DNA of 64,000 bases from Octopus sinensis (Eukaryota), in contig NC_043008.1 in assembly GCF_006345805.1 (NCBI RefSeq), positions 50,902,001 to 50,966,000 of the forward strand, read 5' to 3'. The notes under the pieces are model-generated. The model saw only the letters and a list, made by a program, of their open reading frames with translations. It did no database searches and had not been told where the DNA came from. Positions 13,631-64,000 of this stretch are shown here, piece after piece (within the stretch, counting starts at the first letter, position 1; each line of letters starts with the position of its first letter). Position numbers and translations under genes: made by a program.

Positions 13631-13671
<41 letters not shown>

Positions 13672-13693
13672 TAATATTATATATATATATATA

Positions 13694-13743
<50 letters not shown>

Positions 13744-13884
13744 AATAATAATATATATAATATTATATATATATATATATATATATAAATAATAATATAT
13801 ATATATTATATATATATATAATATAATATATATATTATATATATATAATATATATAATATATATATATATATAAATAATATATA

Positions 13885-13915
<31 letters not shown>

Positions 13916-14001
13916 ATATAATATATATATATATAATATATTATATATATATAAATAATAATATATATATATATATTATATATATATATGTATGTATAAA
14001 T

Positions 14002-21088: not shown

Positions 21089-22140
21089 CTTGGTTGGAAA
21101 ACTTAGCATCTGTAGCTATGAGTAGCTGATTTCTCCTTTTTTTTTGTCCTTTTATTCATTCCATTATTCATTCATTTCTCTTCCATTTCTCATCCATAAA
21201 TTCCTTCTTCATTCATTTTTGTTTCTTTTCTCCCTTTTCTCCCCTCTTCCATATTTCCTTTCTTGTTTCCTTTCCAAATTCTGCGTTTTTGCTCTCTTTT
21301 AAGTCACTTCAGGAAACTACCTTGATTACCTCCCTTGCACTCATAGAGAAACTCTGAAACCTCTTCCCCCTCCCCCCAACCTCCTTTAGCAATTTTCTTG
21401 GTCGCAGATTTTTTTTTTTTTTTTAAATTTGAGCTCGTATATTTTCGCACTACTTCTCCTGCTATTACTCTCCATACCCAAAAGCAACATCATTATGTTC
21501 TTTTATAATAATAATAATAATAATGATATTAATTAGCCTTTCTATTAAAGGCACAAGGCCTGGAATTTGGGGAAAGGGGACTAGTTGAACACATCGACCC
21601 CGGTGTTTTACTGGTACTTAGTTTATTAACTCTGAAAGGATAGAAGGCAAGGTCGACCTTGTTGGAATTTGAACTCAGAACGTAATGACGGGCAAAATAC
21701 CGCCAAGCATCTTGGCTGGCATGCTAACGATTCTGCCAGCTCGCTTCCTTTATAATCATCATCATCATCGTTTAACGTCCGTTTTCCATGCTAGCATGGG
21801 TTGGACGGTTCGGCCGGGATCTGGGAAGCCAGGAGGCTGCACCAGGCTCCAGTCTGATCTGGCAGTGTTTCTACAGCTGGATGCCCTTCCTAATGCCAAC
21901 CACTCCATAATAATAATAATAATAATTCTTTCTACTAAAGGCAGAGGGCCTGAAATTCGGAAGGAGAGGACCAGTTGATTGTATCAACTCTAGTGTTTCA
22001 CTGGTACATAATTTATTGACCCTGAAACGATGAAAAGCAAAGTTGACCTTGACGGAATTTGAACTCAAAACGTAAAGACAGACGAAGTACCTTTAAGCAT
22101 TTTCTCTGGAGTACTAACAATACTACCAGCTCACCACCTG

Positions 22141-22173
<33 letters not shown>

Positions 22174-24927
22174 CCTTTCTACTATAAGCACAAGGTGTGA
22201 AATTTTATGGGGAAGGACTGGCCTGGTGCAGCCTTCGGGCTCCCCAGACCCCAGTTGAACCGTCCAACCCATGCCAGCATGGAAAGCGGACGCTAAATGA
22301 ATGATGATGATGAAGTCAAGACAAGGAGATGGTGACACACATTCGCACGTGCACAGACACAAATATGTAATCAAATTGTATTCTGTATTTTCAGGCGATA
22401 TTCATCAGCTGTATTCTATGAAGTTAAAACCAGGCCACATTGCTGCTTTTTCTGAGGATTGCTCGGGTATTTCAAAGAGACTTACTCTGCTAAAGGTTTG
22501 TTTCCATTTAATGTCAACTTTTGTGAACAAATTTGTGCCATTGAAATTTATTAGTCAGAGAAGGAAAGTGCAGCCCCCTCACTCTCGCCCCTGTATATGG
22601 GGCCTCCAGGTTAGGAAGAACAAGAAATGTTCTAATGGATCTACCTGTATGCATGTATTAACACATTCCACATCTGTGCCAGCCGCCTTATGCCAGCGGC
22701 CTTATGCCAGCGCCGCCTTGACTGGCTTCCGTACCGGTGGCACGTAAAAAGCACCAATCCGATCGTGGCCGTTGCCAGCCTCACTTGGCATATAAAAAGC
22801 AGCCACTACACTCATGGAGTGGTTGGCATTAGATAGGGCATCCAGCTGTAGAAACACTGCCAGATCAGACTGGAGATTGGGGCAGCCAGCTGGCTTCCCA
22901 GATCCTGGTCAAACTGTCCAACCTATGCTAGCATGGAAAACGGACATTAAATGATGATGATAATGATGATATCATTACGCTTGGATACTGTGAATGTTTT
23001 ATCCGGTTTGTTCATGCTGAATTTTGCCTTTGTTAATAGGTTCTTTAGGTTATGTGGTTGCCTTTTGCTTAAGATAAGTGTCTAATTAGTTATGTTTTTT
23101 AATTTTTATCACCTTGTTTCATGATTGGCAAATTTGTTTTGATGATGTTAAAAATGTTCTGGTGATGCGGATTGTGTGTTACTAGGAATGGTATTGTGTT
23201 CCGTTGATGGGTTCATCTTTCTTGTGTTGCCTTAAGTTGTTCTATGGGTATCTCTTTTGCTTGTTGTATGCTATTTTTTACAAGTAGGAGAAGGTATTTT
23301 TGCTTGAGCAGAAATGCTTTGAGTCTTATAATTCATATGTTCCTGTAGTACAAATTTTCCTGGCTAGGCAGTATGGGATGTTGCGTTTTGTGTGTGTTGG
23401 GTAGCATGATTTGAAGTTTAGGTACTGGTGTGTATCTGTGCTTTTGTAATAAATATCAGTTGTGATTGTGGTGTTGTTTTTAATTACCATTATGTCAAGA
23501 AATAAACTGAAATAAACTCGACTGCTCTCACAAACAAGAATAATAAAAATGAACCCGACTGCTCTCAAAAATTAAGTAAAAAAATAGGTAAAATAATTCA
23601 GAATCCTTGTCCGGTATTGGATCAATCCCAAAATTTAATCAGTTTGTGCCAGTCACAGGCCAAACATCCTCAAAAGTTTCATCTGAATCCATCCAGCAGT
23701 TCTTGAGATATCTCGTCCACAGACAAACAAACAAACACAACTGAAAACAATACCTCCACCTTCACTAAGGCGGAGGTACTACTACTACTACTACTAATAC
23801 TACTCATCATCATCATCATCATCATCATCATATGTTTATATATTTGTTTTGCAAAATTTTTGATGTGAAATTGTGTGTTGAAAGAAGAAAGCAAAGGACC
23901 ACTGATGAGGTCACAGGAGTGTGACGAAAGATCTCTGGCCGAAATAAGATTAAGATTAATGTTAAAAATGAATAACACTGAAGCAAAGTAACACCAAATA
24001 TATAGTGCGTGTGTTTTTATTGGCTGAACTAGCAAAATGACCATTTCCTAAATACAACAATAATAATAATAATAATAATAATGTTTTTTTGTCTTTTTGT
24101 AGAACAATTATGTTGAATACATTGACTTCAAGAACAAACATATACAGAAGCTTCACCTAAACCCCAAAGCCTGTTCGTTCAACACTGGACTAATGGTGAC
24201 AGAACTGGGGCTTTGGAAGAAGAACAACATTACTGCACGGCTAGTGTACTGGATGACCCTCAACACTAAGTAGGTATTCTTGGAGTGTGTGTGTATATAT
24301 ATTCTTTTATTCTTGTATTTGTTTCATTCATTTGACTGTGGCCATGCTGGAGTGCCGCCTTTAATCGAGCAAATCGACCCCAAGACTTGTTCTTTATAAG
24401 CCTAGTACTTATTCTATCGGTCTCTTTTGCTGAACTGCTAGGTTACAGGGATGTAAACACACCAGCATCGGTTGTCAAGTGATGTTGGGGGGACAAACAC
24501 ACACACACACATATATATACATACATATGACGGGCTTCTTTCAGTTTCTGTCTACCAAATCCACTCACAAGGCTTTGGTTGGCCCGAGGTTATAGTAGAA
24601 GACACTTGCCCAAGGTGCCATGCAGTGGGACTGAACCTGGAACCATGTGGTTGGTAAGCAAGTGACTTACCACTCAGCCATGCTTGCATCTGTCAGTCTG
24701 TAAATGGTATAAAAAGTATGGTCCCTGTGCAAACTCTAATGATTTGAAGTGCAAGAGAAAATCTGTTGGTTTGTTCACATCCCCATAACTTAGCAGTTTG
24801 GTAAAAGGGACTGCTATAATATCTACCAAAGTTAAACTAAGTCCTGGGGTTTAGTTTGTTTGACTAACACAACAAAGTATTGAACCAGCATGGCTGCAAT
24901 CCAGGGACTGAGACAAGTAAAGAAATA

Positions 24928-33616: not shown

Positions 33617-33663
<47 letters not shown>

Positions 33664-33741
33664 GGTCCCGGGTTGATTCGGGGTTAACCACAGTAAATAA
33701 GGTATTCAATACATAGCAGAGTAAATTAATTTATTATATAG

Positions 33742-33847
33742 AAGGAGCTTCTACAGGACTAGAACTGTTTCATTCAAGAGAAATCATCAGGAAGCTTCCT
33801 GATGATTTCTCTTGAATGAAACAGTTCTAGTCCTGTAGAAGCTCCTT
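33742..33847. ncRNA. Perfect 106-bp palindrome encoding a type-I hammerhead motif on each strand
   Basis: Centre GAAG|CTTC. CUGAUGA 33799-33805; short stem II UUC-ucuu-GAA; GAAA 33818-33821; stem III ACAG/CUGU; GUA cleavage triplet ending 33837; stem I AGCUUC/GAAGCU. Lies in a ~290-bp element flanked by (TA)n. Confidence 0.7.
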
Positions 33848-33945
33848 ATATATATATAATTTTAATCCAAACGGGAAAACAAAAAAACAACAACAATGGA
33901 ACAATTACAGTATTATTATTAATAGGCGCTCAGGAAATGGAAGCA

Positions 33946-44965: not shown

Positions 44966-47236
44966 GCATGCGTGAGTGTGTGTGATTATATGATGTGTAT
45001 TGCAGGCAATGTGTATAGAATGAAAACATCTGCCCGGTGAAGAGGTGAAGCGAATGCTCTTCATCGACTGCAAAATGCAACAGATAAATAAACAAAACGT
45101 ATTAAAATAAATAAAATAAATACGAAAGTTTAAAACATGAAATTTACCAGTCACGTGATGTGAACTGACCTGAATAATGGTTTTGCCGCGTTGTTATTAT
45201 TGTTACTGTCATAAGGCGGCGAGCTGGCAGAATCGTTAGCACGCCGGGCGAAATGCTTAGCAAGTATTTCGTCTGCCGCTATGTTCTGAGTTCAAATCCC
45301 GCCGAGGTTGACTTTGTCTTTTATCCTTTCGGAATTGATAAAACAAATACCAGTCAAACACTGGGGGTCAATATAATCAACCTACCTCTCCCCGGAAATT
45401 GCTTGCCTTGTGCCAAAATTTGAAGCCAATATCTTCGTAGTCATAAAGATTGGCCGAATCGTTAGCATCCCGGACAAAATGCTTTGCAACATCACCGAGG
45501 TATTTTATAGAACCTTCTTCCAGAATTCCTATTGTTTTCTCCCCATTTACTTGTTTGCCTTTCATCCTTTCAGTGTTGATAAAATAAGTACCACTTGAGG
45601 ATTGGGGTCGATGTAACCGACTAAGCCCCTCCCCTCAAAATTTCAGGTCTTGTGCCTATAGTTGAAAGCGTGAGTTATGGCTGTTGTTTAAGCCTTGGTC
45701 AGCCTTCCTCCAGCAGACTTAGATCAATGGAGCGGCGTTGTTCCAGAAATATACAGCATATTGTGCAGAGACCCAGAAGCGCCGGCCCCCGTAAAAGCGT
45801 CACCCAGGGTGGACCGCCTTAATTCTATAACAATACAACTGAATCCGTAGTTGTCCAACCATGACAGTGTCACCTTGGTACGTGGTACTTCCGACTCGCA
45901 GTACTGAGCTTAGATGGAAAGAGTTCATGGCATATTCCACTTGTACTGCGTCTCTTTTACGACTCGAATTATATATACATCTTGGCTGGAGGTCTTCCAG
46001 GTTTTGAGAACTTAGGTTTAAACCTGTCAAGCATACAGGTAAATCCGGCATTGTCTATCCAGGATTATTGTATCCAATGTGCCCTCATCCCATTTTATAA
46101 ATCTTGCATAGCTTAGCTATTCGTCTCTTGGTCGTCCTGAGATAAGTCTGTCTTAGGATTTAGGTTTCTCATCAGTCCTAGGGCTTATGATGCTTGAGGT
46201 TAACTCGGTTTCCGAAGTGAGTAAGTAACAAAGGTTACAACAGTCCCACCACTCGTGAACGGAGCGCCGATCCATTGCCGGGTGAACTTTCCCAGTTGCT
46301 ATAACAACTCATTTACAGTCGAGTGGACTGTAGCAACGTCAAGTAAAGTGCTTGGCTCAAAAACACAACGTACCACCCGGTCAAGGAATCGAACCAACAG
46401 TCTTACGGTCGTGAGCGCAACACCCTATCTGCAAGGTGTTCATACCCCTACTTCTACAGGACTTACAGGAGTCAAAGCAGCGTAAAGGCCACGCGGTCAG
46501 CTCTATTGATCAGGCTATTCTGGCACGGGTGTGACAAGAACTTCAGTGGTTCTCAACCATGCAGCAAAATAGTAGACTGGGGATCCACACTAGTATTTTA
46601 AGGGCCCCTGAAAAAAAAAAATTACTTTGATGTATGCATTGGTATGTATATATAGCAAGAAACAGCTGGGTTTCTTTTTCTAACATTTTACATGGATCAA
46701 CCTACACAAGTTAACGGGGAGAAAACAATAGGGATTACTCTTTTACTCTTTTTACTCTTTTACTTGTTTCAGTCATTTGACTGCGGCCATGCTGGAGCAC
46801 CGCCTTTAGTCGAACAAATCGACCCCGGGACTTATTCTTTGTAAGCCCAGTACTTATTCTATCGGTCTCTTTTGCCGAACCGCTAAGTGACAGGAACACA
46901 AACACACCAGCATCGGTTGTCAAGCAATGTTAGGGGGACAAACACAGACACACAAACCCACACACACATATATATATACATACATATGACAGGCTTCTTT
47001 CAGTTTCCGTCTACCAAATCCACTCGCAAGGCATTGGTCGGCCCGGGGCTATAGCAGAAGACACTTGCCCAAGATGCCACGCAGTGGGACTGAACCCGGA
47101 ACCATGTGGTTGGTTAGCAAGCTACTTGCCACACAGCCACTCCTGCGCCTGGATTCTGGAAGAAGGTTCTATAAAACTAGTTTTTAAACATCGAAAGGCT
47201 ATGGGGACCCACCCAAGTAAAATAGTAATTAAAGGG

Positions 47237-47934
47237 GTCCCCAAAAGTCAGTGATGGGTCTCAATTCTTAATAACTTCCTTAACTTTACAAATAAATGCA
47301 TGAAATTTTGATACAATATGAAGGACATTGTGGTTATTAATATGCGCAAGTCAAATTTTGAAACACTACTGCATCACACATGAAAAATGATATCGCTTAA
47401 ATGGCAACCATTTTTGGCTTCTCACACCCGTGCTCTTTCCAAAAGTTGCACCATAACACCCCCAAGAGTTTCAGACCCCAACTCTCTGATTTGACTTCGC
47501 TATTAATATTCTCCTTCAGTTGCACCAGGGTCTCCGGTTTGTTGATGTAAACCCTCTCTTTCAGGTATCCCCACAAGAAAAAAATCCGATCTAGTCAAGT
47601 CTGCGGAACGTGAAGGCCAGTTGACATTATTCTCTCAACAAACCGGAGACCGACCCTGGTGCAACTGAAGGAGAACATCAATAGGGAAATCAGAGAAGTG
47701 GGGTCTGAAACTCTTGAAGGTGTTATAGAGAAAGTTTTGGAAAGAGCACGGGCGCGCGAAGCCGAAAATGGCTGCGATGTCATTTGTCATATGTGATGTA
47801 GAGGTTTTGCAAAATATGGGCAGATTAATTTCCATTGTGTCCTTCATATTGTATCAAAATTTCACGCATTTATTTGTAAAGTTAAGGAAGCTATTGAGAA
47901 TTGAGACCCATCACTGACTTTTGGGGACACCATG
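47237..47934. mobile_element. Foldback element made of two inverted 3' ends of a Tc1/mariner-superfamily (maT/rosa-like) transposon
   Basis: Minus strand NWPSRSADLTRSDFFLWGYLKERVYINKPETLVQLKENI; plus strand LVQLKENINREIREVGSETLEGV. Arms are ~300 bp and diverged; the right end is GGGGACACCATG|TA. Confidence 0.75.
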
Positions 47935-60561: not shown

Positions 60562-61622
60562 CATATAGGGTACAGGACGTCACCAACAGTAAACACATGA
60601 AATACGAAAACAAATGAGTTAAATACACAAACAACGAAAGAAGAAATGGAAAACAGGGCAAGTAACACAAAGAACGACCCTTCATCAGATATATACACAC
60701 ACACATGTATAGACACACATATGACATTAAATAGACGTAGTAATTAAATAAACAACACCATTAGCGTGCAGTTGTTTTTGCTATTAGACGCAGTCTACTC
60801 AAACAGAGAACCTGTGTCTCGCTTTATAACCCCATAACTTCACCAGAGCTCCGACGAAGCTATAAGGTGATGCACAAGCACTCATGTCTGAGTGCACTGC
60901 GTCTTGCAGCAGAAACAGCCGTAGGCCAATGTCATCGTTTACGTAATTCCTGTTCCATTGTAATTCATTTAATTTCATATTATGCTTTGTACTAGCTTTG
61001 CGTTTTATTCTGGAACATGTGTATATTGTGTTCCAGGTTATTAGTATCACTAATCCTTAGCGAAATAAGAAAAATATAATATAATATAGCATGATATAAT
61101 ATCGTAGAGGCGCAATGGCCCAGTAGTTAGGGCGGCGGACTCGCGGTCGGAGGATCGCGGTTTCGATTCCCAGACCGGGCGTTGTGTGTGTTTATTGAGC
61201 GAAAACACCATAAAGCTCCACGAGGCTCCGGCAGGGGGTGGTGGCGACCCCTGTTGTACTCTTTCGCCCCAACTTTCTCTCACTCTTCCTGTAACGCTGT
61301 GATGGACTGGCGTCCCGTCCAGCTGGGGGGAACACATACGCTATAGGAACCGGGAAACCGGGCCCATGAACCTGGCTAGGCTTGAAAAGGGCGCATAAAA
61401 AAATATAATATAATATCACGTGTAAGGTGGTGAGCTGGCAGAATCGTTGGCGCGCTGGACGAAATGCTTAGTGGTATTTCGCCCGTCGCTACGTTCTGAG
61501 TTCAAACTCCACCAAGGTCGACTTTGCCTTTCATCTTTTCGGGATCGATAAATGAAGTACCAATTGAGTACTGAGGTTGATGTAATCGACTTAATCCCAT
61601 GCCCACAAATTTGAAGCTCAAA

Positions 61623-61722
61623 NNNNNNNNNNNNNNNNNNNNNNNNNNNNNNNNNNNNNNNNNNNNNNNNNNNNNNNNNNNNNNNNNNNNNNNNNNNNNN
61701 NNNNNNNNNNNNNNNNNNNNNN
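61623..61722. other. Assembly gap (100 N)
   Basis: Run of 100 N; contiguity across it is not guaranteed. Confidence 1.
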
Positions 61723-62002
61723 TAATCAAGCAGCCACGTCTGCTTATTATTTGAACGTCTTGCGTTCAAATCCCGCCAAAGACAACTTTGCCCTTTATCT
61801 TTTGACAGTTGATAAAATAGAGAACCATGTGAGTGCTAGGGTCGATGTAATCGATTTATCTTCTCTGTGATATTGCTGCCTTTCTGCTGATTTGGATACG
61901 AATACCAATAAAAGATTTATCCTACCCTCTCAGACCTGGGACCCTGTGTCTAGCTTTACCTTCAACCTTGGCTCTAGAGCATAAAATAAATTATAGTTGT
62001 AT

Positions 62003-62407
62003 ATATTTCTTTACTACCCACAAAGGGCTAAACATAGAGGGGACAAACAGATTAAGTAGATTATATCGATCCCAATGCGAAACTGGTACTTTATTTATCG
62101 ACCCCGAAAGGATGAAAGGCAAAGTCGACCTCGGTGGAATTTGAACTCAGAATGTAGCGACAGACGAAATACCTATTTCTTTACTACCCACAAGGGGCTA
62201 AATACAGAGAGGACAAACAAGGACAGACAAACGGATTAATTGACGATTATATCGACCCTAGTGCGTAACTGGTACTTAATTTATCGACCCCGAAAGGATG
62301 AAAGGCAAAGTCGACCTCGGCAGAATTTGAACTCAGAACGTAACGGCAGACGAAATACGGCTACGCATTTCGCCCGGCGTGCTAACGTTTCTGCCAGCTC
62401 GCCGCCT
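62003..62407 (-). mobile_element. SINE family M dimer
   Basis: Junction GAAATACCTATTTC at 62166-62179. Confidence 0.8.
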
Positions 62408-64000
62408 CATAAAATAAATAATAGTTGTATATACAGCTCAGGAGTAATGGACAAGCAAAGTACTCGACAAAATCAGCTGCATCTTCTACTCGTGTTGTTC
62501 ATTGAAATTTAACATATTCTAGCTATAGAGGGAATACGGCGTGACACGATTAAGCTGGTGAACTGGGAGAAGCTTTTGCGCGTCGTACAAGATGCTGACC
62601 GTACCCAGTTTCCTTCACAAGGATTGAGCCTATTCAAATTTAAGGTAAAAAACACTTGCTTGAAATTCCACACAGTGAAAACGATCCTGGACTCCACACC
62701 GTGGTTCTGGCGTGAACTTATTTCAATCTCATAGTCATATCAACCATACTAAACCATACCAATTCACAGAAACAATTGAAGCAATACTGACAAAGTAGTA
62801 TTGTCGGAAATCATGGGCAACCTTCCAAAGCATTTGTCACACGAAATCACTTGTTAACCGGAAATCTAATCGATCATTGTGCAAAAACATATAAATATAA
62901 AAGTTCTGCTTCATATACACTGGCCACCATTTCATTACGAGTCTAATTTTCGACTTACGACCGTAATTTGAATTTCACGGTTTCGTACGCAGACGACAGT
63001 TTTCTATCTATGTAACGGATCATTTACTTGCGACCATACACTTTCAAGTAATAAACCAGAAACGAAACACAACGGATAAATTAGCGGTCTTATTAGGTGT
63101 TATTATTAATGAAAAGTAGAAGGCGGTGAGTTGGCAGAATCATAAGCACGCCAGACGAAATGCTTAGTGGTATTTCGTCCGTCTTTACGTTCTGAGTTCA
63201 AATTCAACTGGGATCGACTTTGCCTTTGATCCTTTCAGGGTCGATGTAATCGACTATTCCCCTCCCCCAATTTCAGGCTCTGTCCCTAGAGCAGAAAGGA
63301 TTATTAACGAAAAACAGGAGGCGGCGAGCTGGCAGAATCGTTAGTGCACTGGGCGAAATACGTAGCCGTATTTCGTTTGCCATTACGTTCTGAGTTCAAT
63401 TTCCGCCGAGGTCGACTTTGCCTTTCATCCTTCCGGGGTCAATAAATAAGTACCAGTTACGCACTGGGGTCTGTGTAATCGACTTAATCCGTTTGTCTGT
63501 CCTTGTTTGTCCCCTTTGTATTTAGCCCCTTGTGGGTAATAAAGAAATAGGTATTGCGTCTGCCTCTACGTTCTGAGTTCAAATTCAGCCGTGGTCGACT
63601 TTGCTTTTAATCCTTTCGGGGTCAATAAAAGAAGTACCAGTCATGGACTGGAGTCGACGTAATCGAGTTGCCCCTTTCCCCAAAATTTCAGACCTTATAC
63701 TTATAATAGAAAGAATTATTATTGAAAGGTGTAAACAGTGAGCTAGTAGAGTTGTTAGCACGCCGGGCAAAATTCTTTGCGTTATTTCGTTCGTCTTTAC
63801 CTTCTGGATTCAAATGCGACCATGGTCGACTTTGTCTTTTATCTTTCGAGGTCGATAAAATAAGTACCAGTTTCACACTGGGGTTAATGTAATTGACTTA
63901 TACCCTCCTCTCAATAACTGCTTGCTCTGTGCCAAAATTTGAATTTGGATTCATTATTAAGGAAAAGGTTTAAAGCGAAGAATTGGCAGAGTTGTCAATG

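Follow-up and report, generated by a model that had tools for sequence, protein, structure and literature searches.

A loop-less double-hammerhead palindrome in Octopus sinensis marks a recurrent head-to-head junction of a Penelope-like retrotransposon at its inferred RNA start

Near the middle of the window, the 64,000-nucleotide stretch of Octopus sinensis DNA analysed here, positions 33742–33847 form a perfect inverted repeat with 53-bp arms (33742–33794 and 33795–33847) and a loop of zero, one of three non-simple perfect inverted repeats found in the window with arms of at least 15 bp and a loop of at most 15. Its axis, between AAG and CTT, lies 4 nt 5′ of a CTGATGA core (33799–33805), and the mirror core occupies 33790–33784 on the minus strand; in all of this an earlier note on the sequence was exact. 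That note had treated the palindrome as the whole element; the minus-strand arm, however, extends 82 bases past it, to 33660, and the palindrome is the centre of a 188-bp insertion, 33660–33847, lying within (TA)n. Further long inverted repeats in the window lie at 13653–13979, 21751–22971, 47234–47931 and 61425–63846.

We number the element from the A of AGCT as +1. By its match to an open reading frame (ORF)-bearing copy, L061, the long arm (33660–33796, minus strand) runs from +1 of the pLTR, at 33796, through the hammerhead to the distal end of the ‘tail’ at +138; native sequence beyond that point continues to +141 with ATAT-like bases and then enters the ORF. The short arm (33793–33847, plus strand) runs from +1 of the pLTR, at 33793, to +55, while the short arms of other copies end mostly at +63 to +72. 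Both arms contain the self-complementary AGCT at 33793–33796, element +1 to +4 and the start of stem I, which would be the first bases of the element RNA. An AT-rich run at 33729–33741 on the minus strand, +56 to +68 of the long arm, is part of the element rather than of the flank, and is a candidate second start site for the reverse transcriptase (RT). The real left side of the microsatellite target is (TA)20 at 33620–33659 and the right side is (AT)n at 33848–33858; these (TA)n flanks mask any target-site duplication.

Each strand of the palindrome carries a type I hammerhead motif, at 33793–33843 on the plus strand (predicted cut after A33837) and at 33746–33796 on the minus strand (predicted cut after 33752); the earlier description of exactly two back-to-back hammerheads thus holds for the motif on each strand, but the two are not simply abutted, as they share the 4 nt of AGCT, 33793–33796. 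The elements of the type I core, CUGANGA, GAAA, UH and three stems, are present: on the plus strand, a 6-bp stem I, AGCTTC/GAAGCT (33793–33798/33838–33843), CTGATGA, GAAA (33818–33821), a 4-bp stem III, ACAG/CTGT, and a GTA ending at A33837. Stem II is weak, a U-U followed by UUC/GAA, and these parts all read as the note had listed them. The pair 10.1-11.1 that closes stem II, usually G-C, is absent, with U-U in 118 of 119 arms, and Rfam returned no match at gathering score anywhere in the window. CTGANGA by itself is barely enriched there (36 occurrences against 25.9 ± 5.3), so support for the motif comes from its full anatomy and from how it varies across the family. Among the 119 arms, a sample partly chosen on an exact core, the frequent variants are those at N7, loop II and loop III, a pattern that suggests a hammerhead under selection in the source elements; no compensatory pair changes were seen in the stems of these arms. 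The 51-nt hammerhead RNA has a predicted active-fold share of 0.036, and its fold is predicted at −7.3 kcal/mol against −93.7 kcal/mol for the palindrome hairpin. A read-through RNA of the locus is accordingly predicted to fold into a 53-bp hairpin that locks both hammerheads, so this copy is likely inert. Both arms of the insertion also cross the predicted cut site, which argues that the template RNA was uncut at this hammerhead.

Searching with one arm produced 898 candidates; 40 of these were scored, and the matches were mostly mirror pairs. At all 21 distinct loci viewed, a short arm, AGCT and a long arm follow one another between (TA)n on either side. Copies with a different base before AGCT (216 matches) ran on into native upstream sequence and led to L061, which has a pLTR, a tail, an ORF starting at +184 with two frameshifts, a second, direct pLTR 5,388 bp further on, and an inverted copy. 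Other copies have open frames of 539–688 aa (natural frames, with motifs judged by eye); none of the copies read holds a complete intact ORF. The ORFs carry an RT-type YRDDG, a CxCx5C linker and a C-terminal LVY..YIG, and so combine RT with an endonuclease of GIY-YIG type at the C terminus in one frame as EN+ Penelope-like elements do, at the level of motifs; the partial tandem arrangement of pLTRs in L061, the adjacent inverted 5′-truncated copy and the one-sided tail are likewise those of EN+ elements. Hydra-type motifs comprise RWR, DKT, CNCPDKTTC, CDLC and CMH, with one Cys only within the LVY..YIG core; together with the (TA)n target these agree with the Hydra clade, with RWR in place of RWK. 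Atlas neighbours at 0.95–0.99 include GIY-YIG in part of their members; Pfam gave only sub-threshold, unrelated matches to four ORF pieces, and PDB sequences gave no match at E 10. Judged by these sequence features, the 188-bp insertion derives from a Penelope-like retrotransposon that carries Hydra-clade motifs, and represents its pLTR end.

The family is abundant, with 3,517 exact genome matches to a 20-mer of the core and 3,245 to a 24-mer of the tail, which is about 73 nt long. In L061, L031, L042 and L050 the 3′ part of the parent is a microsatellite-rich segment of about 3 kb that travels with the element, and where long inverted arms stand apart, this segment occupies the interval. There are at least two related families, at 46–48% identity and with many open frames above 700 aa, which are probably younger.

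The earlier note had proposed that such junctions recur, and they do. The exact AGCT-centred junction is present at 251 loci with CTGATGA in both arms and at 235 with CTGAAGA in both, so that the arms agree at the N7 base at 486 loci and are mixed at 4; three of the mixed loci differ at N7 alone and the fourth at three bases. Among 38 fetched loci, the exact junction occurs in five concordant N7/loop II variants, four of which also occur with native upstream sequence, so the junction was made more than once, from different source elements; by the same sequence comparison, both arms of one locus nearly always come from the same source. Arms are identical at 15 of the 38 loci, and none of the 38 has two long arms. 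Insertions drawing on two different RNAs were considered and set aside, 4 mixed loci of 490 being not above a possible mutation level; L016 is one further candidate for such an insertion. The junction also stands in 19 contigs of a separate public run, X16, which leave the pLTR at +1 and continue as mirror sequence, although this run may be the source sample of the assembly.

To locate where copies stop, we used the first 100 of the 3,245 tail matches, which cover the first 83 Mb of contig C1, and aligned each of the 100 tail-anchored arms to five variant references; the 100 include three likely duplicate pairs (L242/243, L293/294 and L261, present twice). The 5′ ends of these long arms lie beyond −100 in 35 cases, at −99 to −31 in 3, at −30 to −1 in 3, exactly at +1 in 17, at +2 to +12 in 22, at +13 to +45 in 13, and at +57 or later in 7. 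The 17 ends at the single base +1, against 6 across the 99 bases upstream, give a binomial p of ~1e-29 and a 5′ pile-up at the edge of stem I; a single-reference count had given 19 at +1, two of these arms proving to carry the native upstream sequence of a sister variant. An adjacent inverted arm is present for 53 of the 100 long arms. Of these inverted arms, 19 start at +1, 3 upstream of it and all others downstream. Their other ends fall at +63 to +72 in 51 cases, at +68 in 25 of these, and at +141 in none. The exact AGCT junction accounts for 6 of the 100 long arms, and a junction with one arm starting at +5 for 8. A native palindrome longer than AGCT, GTTAAC at −7 to −2, is central in 2 of 50 junctions read with both arms at +1 and a short spacer, and microhomology on its own was therefore rejected as the cause of the site.

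The wall at +1 lies close behind a promoter-like motif. In 70 of 77 native arms [TC]ATAAAT[GA]C stands 29 nt before +1, and in the other 7 it stands 27–28 nt before it; the spacing is kept over five variants that differ in the intervening bases. A TATA-to-start distance of this size is usual for RNA polymerase II. The bases next to the wall carry a second mark. Both arms begin at +1 with a spacer of 0–14 nt at 111 loci; in the 50 of these that were read, G occupies −1 on 64 of 100 arm ends, and on both arms at 27 of the 50 loci, in contrast to 0 of the 77 native arms. One copy, L238, is native-like as far as −25, yet has G at −1. Counting against a cap origin, the 39 arms joined straight to AT-rich DNA have G at −1 in 12 cases but C in 10, with T in 11 and A in 6, so that C is raised as well. 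Reverse transcriptases can add C without a cap; in the solo arms with C at −1 (10 of 39, such as L135, L149, L151 and L153) this base is non-native for most of their variants. Spacers are often short templated pieces of +5 to +13, sometimes repeated (L036/L037), as if the RT had re-primed several times at the end of the RNA. Together, the TATA spacing and the non-native G make the wall fit the 5′ end of an RNA: +1 would be an RNA polymerase II start, with the transcript beginning with stem I, and the G a copied cap, in analogy with the extra G that marks the mRNA cap at full-length L1 insertions (PMC11702581, in the part available). The junction at 33660–33847 has no G, and trimming or a G-less copy has to be assumed for it. 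The promoter of D. virilis Penelope is described as internal and TATA-less (PMC2377424, available in part), so this promoter type is not general.

We infer that a loop-less AGCT centre, and likewise the single base that separates two G-marked arms at 4 of the 50 spacer loci, cannot be a priming hairpin, which counts against the self-priming or fold-back at stem I that the earlier note had suggested. Short arms, moreover, are also found singly, and one closes a full copy at its 3′ end, so that +68 is a primary end. Accessible parts of the work on the Anolis Penelope-like protein report that it cuts and extends both strands in vitro from two internal starts, and that it is a predicted dimer using unprocessed RNA (PMC11167929). 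Taken together, the centres without a hairpin, the primary end at +68, the lack of paired long arms among the 38 fetched loci and the behaviour of the Anolis protein favour two cDNAs annealed through AGCT. In the scheme that we regard as the best explanation, and as probable, RNA polymerase II would start at +1, giving a transcript that begins with stem I; the protein, predicted to prime on both cut target strands, would use a different internal site for each strand, +141 and about +68, with one RNA or several RNAs from one source as template; both cDNAs would run off the capped 5′ end of the uncut element RNA; and their ends would be joined through the 4-bp microhomology of the self-complementary AGCT. 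The axis of the palindrome would then lie in stem I for the sole reason that the RNA of this family starts there.

The most serious competitor, which we nevertheless think unlikely, has one cDNA run off at the RNA 5′ end, snap back and be copied until the AT stretch at +68 anneals to the target. In its favour, arms share diagnostic bases at 486 loci and differ at 4, a concordance that the scheme of two cDNAs takes as one source for both arms but that also fits fold-back or later gene conversion; the short +5 to +13 copies in spacers are what a snap-back would leave, many junction variants, such as those starting at +5, are fitted as well by it, and the explanation published for palindromes of this kind is self-priming (PMC3846280, as far as its available parts go). 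Against it stand the same two features that favour paired cDNAs, the centres with no loop or one base and the short arms found singly or closing a full copy.

That the hammerhead itself ties down the breakpoint, as the earlier note had proposed, its fold or its cleavage stalling the RT or priming it at stem I, seems to us very unlikely. The wall and the 5′ edge of stem I do fall on the same base, and the motif looks selected, with its variants at N7, loop II and loop III. At the predicted cleavage product, +46, however, none of the 153 arms (100 long and 53 inverted) has its 5′ end. Copies with another base after GTA number 48; of the 30 read, a single one has a clean break at that point and three have a break through TA/TGTA microhomology, whereas all others carry point changes. 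Folding is not supported as the cause either: an RT moving 3′ to 5′ on the RNA would already have opened stem I by the time it reached the wall, and a ribozyme leaves the G and the TATA spacing unexplained, both of which fit an RNA 5′ end instead. One copy, L296 (= L167, at C1 ~1599700), stops precisely where the cut is predicted and continues in the T-rich run upstream in the element, possibly a single trace of cleavage.

The 161–479 palindrome, which the note had called unrelated in sequence and yet of the same architecture, bears on this too. It does belong to a different family, with 56 exact matches in the genome, and from 161 to about 700 the window holds the inverted end of this second hammerhead-bearing family. 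Among 32 arms, 16 have ends scattered over 13 positions from 81 to 17 nt upstream of the core, none of them in its stem I. The remaining 16 run further upstream and were left out as ends: one is the reference itself, and in the other 15 the alignment breaks off at −130 to −155, for the most part in an A/T tract whose length varies. With its ends spread outside stem I, this family does not share a ribozyme-tied axis as a rule. Many of its 5′ ends lie about 12–30 nt behind an AT-rich, TATA-like stretch. At L117, a short arm of the octopus Penelope-like family adjoins a copy of the 161–479 family in one (TA)n tract.

An end at +1 produced by other RNA processing or by a DNA cut, such as a splice acceptor whose TAG ends at +2 or a nuclease site, is to our mind highly improbable. 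The main variant has a pyrimidine run and a TAG ending at +2, and in D. virilis the 5′ end of helix I coincides with an intron end (PMC4209133, in the part available); but the wall retains at +1 and +2 the AG that would be lost in splicing, two variants lack the TAG and show A or C at −1, and again the TATA spacing and the G would go unexplained.

We give very little credence to a single palindromic mini-element, similar to a MITE or a retrozyme, that spreads as a unit. A centre common to 486 loci and identical arms at 15 of the 38 fetched loci are what it would predict; the junction, however, comes in five variants, four of them also found with native upstream sequence, short-arm ends vary, the exact form is but one among a range of junctions, and the units are not tandem. 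A MITE or other DNA transposon was rejected since it needs fixed terminal inverted repeats, while the ends here are unequal and the short one falls at +55 to +72; a non-LTR retrozyme was rejected since it consists of direct repeats in tandem that each carry a type I hammerhead (10.64898/2026.07.22.740005, in its accessible part), while the units here are dispersed and inverted. Perfect palindromes can arise in amplification or assembly, but a fold-back artefact of library or assembly has next to no probability, given that the arms are unequal and end at sites specific to the element, that the flanks differ among hundreds of loci, and that the contigs of run X16 show the junction.

Head-to-head Penelope palindromes are already in print, and the structure is ordinary for Penelope-like elements. 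EN+ Penelope-like insertions regularly have inverted 5′-truncated copies, a tail on one side and (TA)n as target (PMC8557442), and palindromes at the inverted junction in Adineta were ascribed to self-priming on an antisense template (PMC3846280); as far as the available parts of these two sources show, their units have the head-to-head truncated copies, the pLTR hammerhead and the microsatellite target of the octopus family. In the octopus, unlike in those published units, hundreds of loci have the junction at one and the same base, and the tail is about 73 nt where 30–40 is usual in Penelope-like elements. The octopus evidence also points to a capped sense RNA and two cDNAs, in contrast to the antisense self-priming proposed for Adineta. 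With the Hydra clade, in what we could consult of PMC8557442, the family shares RW[K/R], DKT, the CxCx5C linker, CxxC and CxH around a conserved E and N, the (TA)n target, a hammerhead of canonical type and the lack of CCHH; the clade has RWK where the octopus has RWR, and the assignment is one by motifs.

Comparison with better-studied systems, again from partial views of the sources, gives both parallels and differences. PAc, the Poseidon element of Anolis (PMC11167929), cuts and extends both strands, has two internal starts that define its tail and does not need hammerhead cleavage; it belongs to a different clade, however, the account consulted takes up neither the 5′ junction nor inverted copies, and the octopus ORF starts at +184, after the hammerhead and tail. 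Truncated Schistosoma PLEs likewise yield opposite-strand hammerhead pairs of low predicted activity (PMC4209133), but those pairs lie 100–700 bp apart whereas the octopus pair overlaps by 4 nt; the octopus motif has a 4-bp stem III but U-U at 10.1-11.1. Twin priming in L1 (PMC11702581) resembles the proposed scheme in its second primer from the other target strand, its microhomology join and its extra G; L1 cDNAs copy adjacent parts of the RNA, however, while the octopus pair would both copy the 5′-terminal 55–68 nt and reach the end. Literature searches, chiefly outside subscription papers, turned up neither a G derived from the cap nor a wall at the start site for insertions of PLEs. What gives the octopus family its value is the sharp, G-marked wall at a putative start site.

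For head-to-head Penelope palindromes in general, we lean slightly towards double priming by one complex on uncut, capped sense RNA, with both cDNAs reaching the cap and joining ends. If this is true, double priming would be the equivalent of two strong-stop DNAs and would replace the antisense self-priming proposal, and the stubs left in the genome would map the element promoter to the base and show that the template hammerhead was uncut. How the inverted ends form and what the hammerhead does in PLEs are both stated to be open in the available parts of PMC8557442 and PMC11167929; with hundreds of natural junctions in which the wall is one base wide, the TATA spacing is conserved and an additional G occurs, the octopus family provides a record on which both questions become directly testable.
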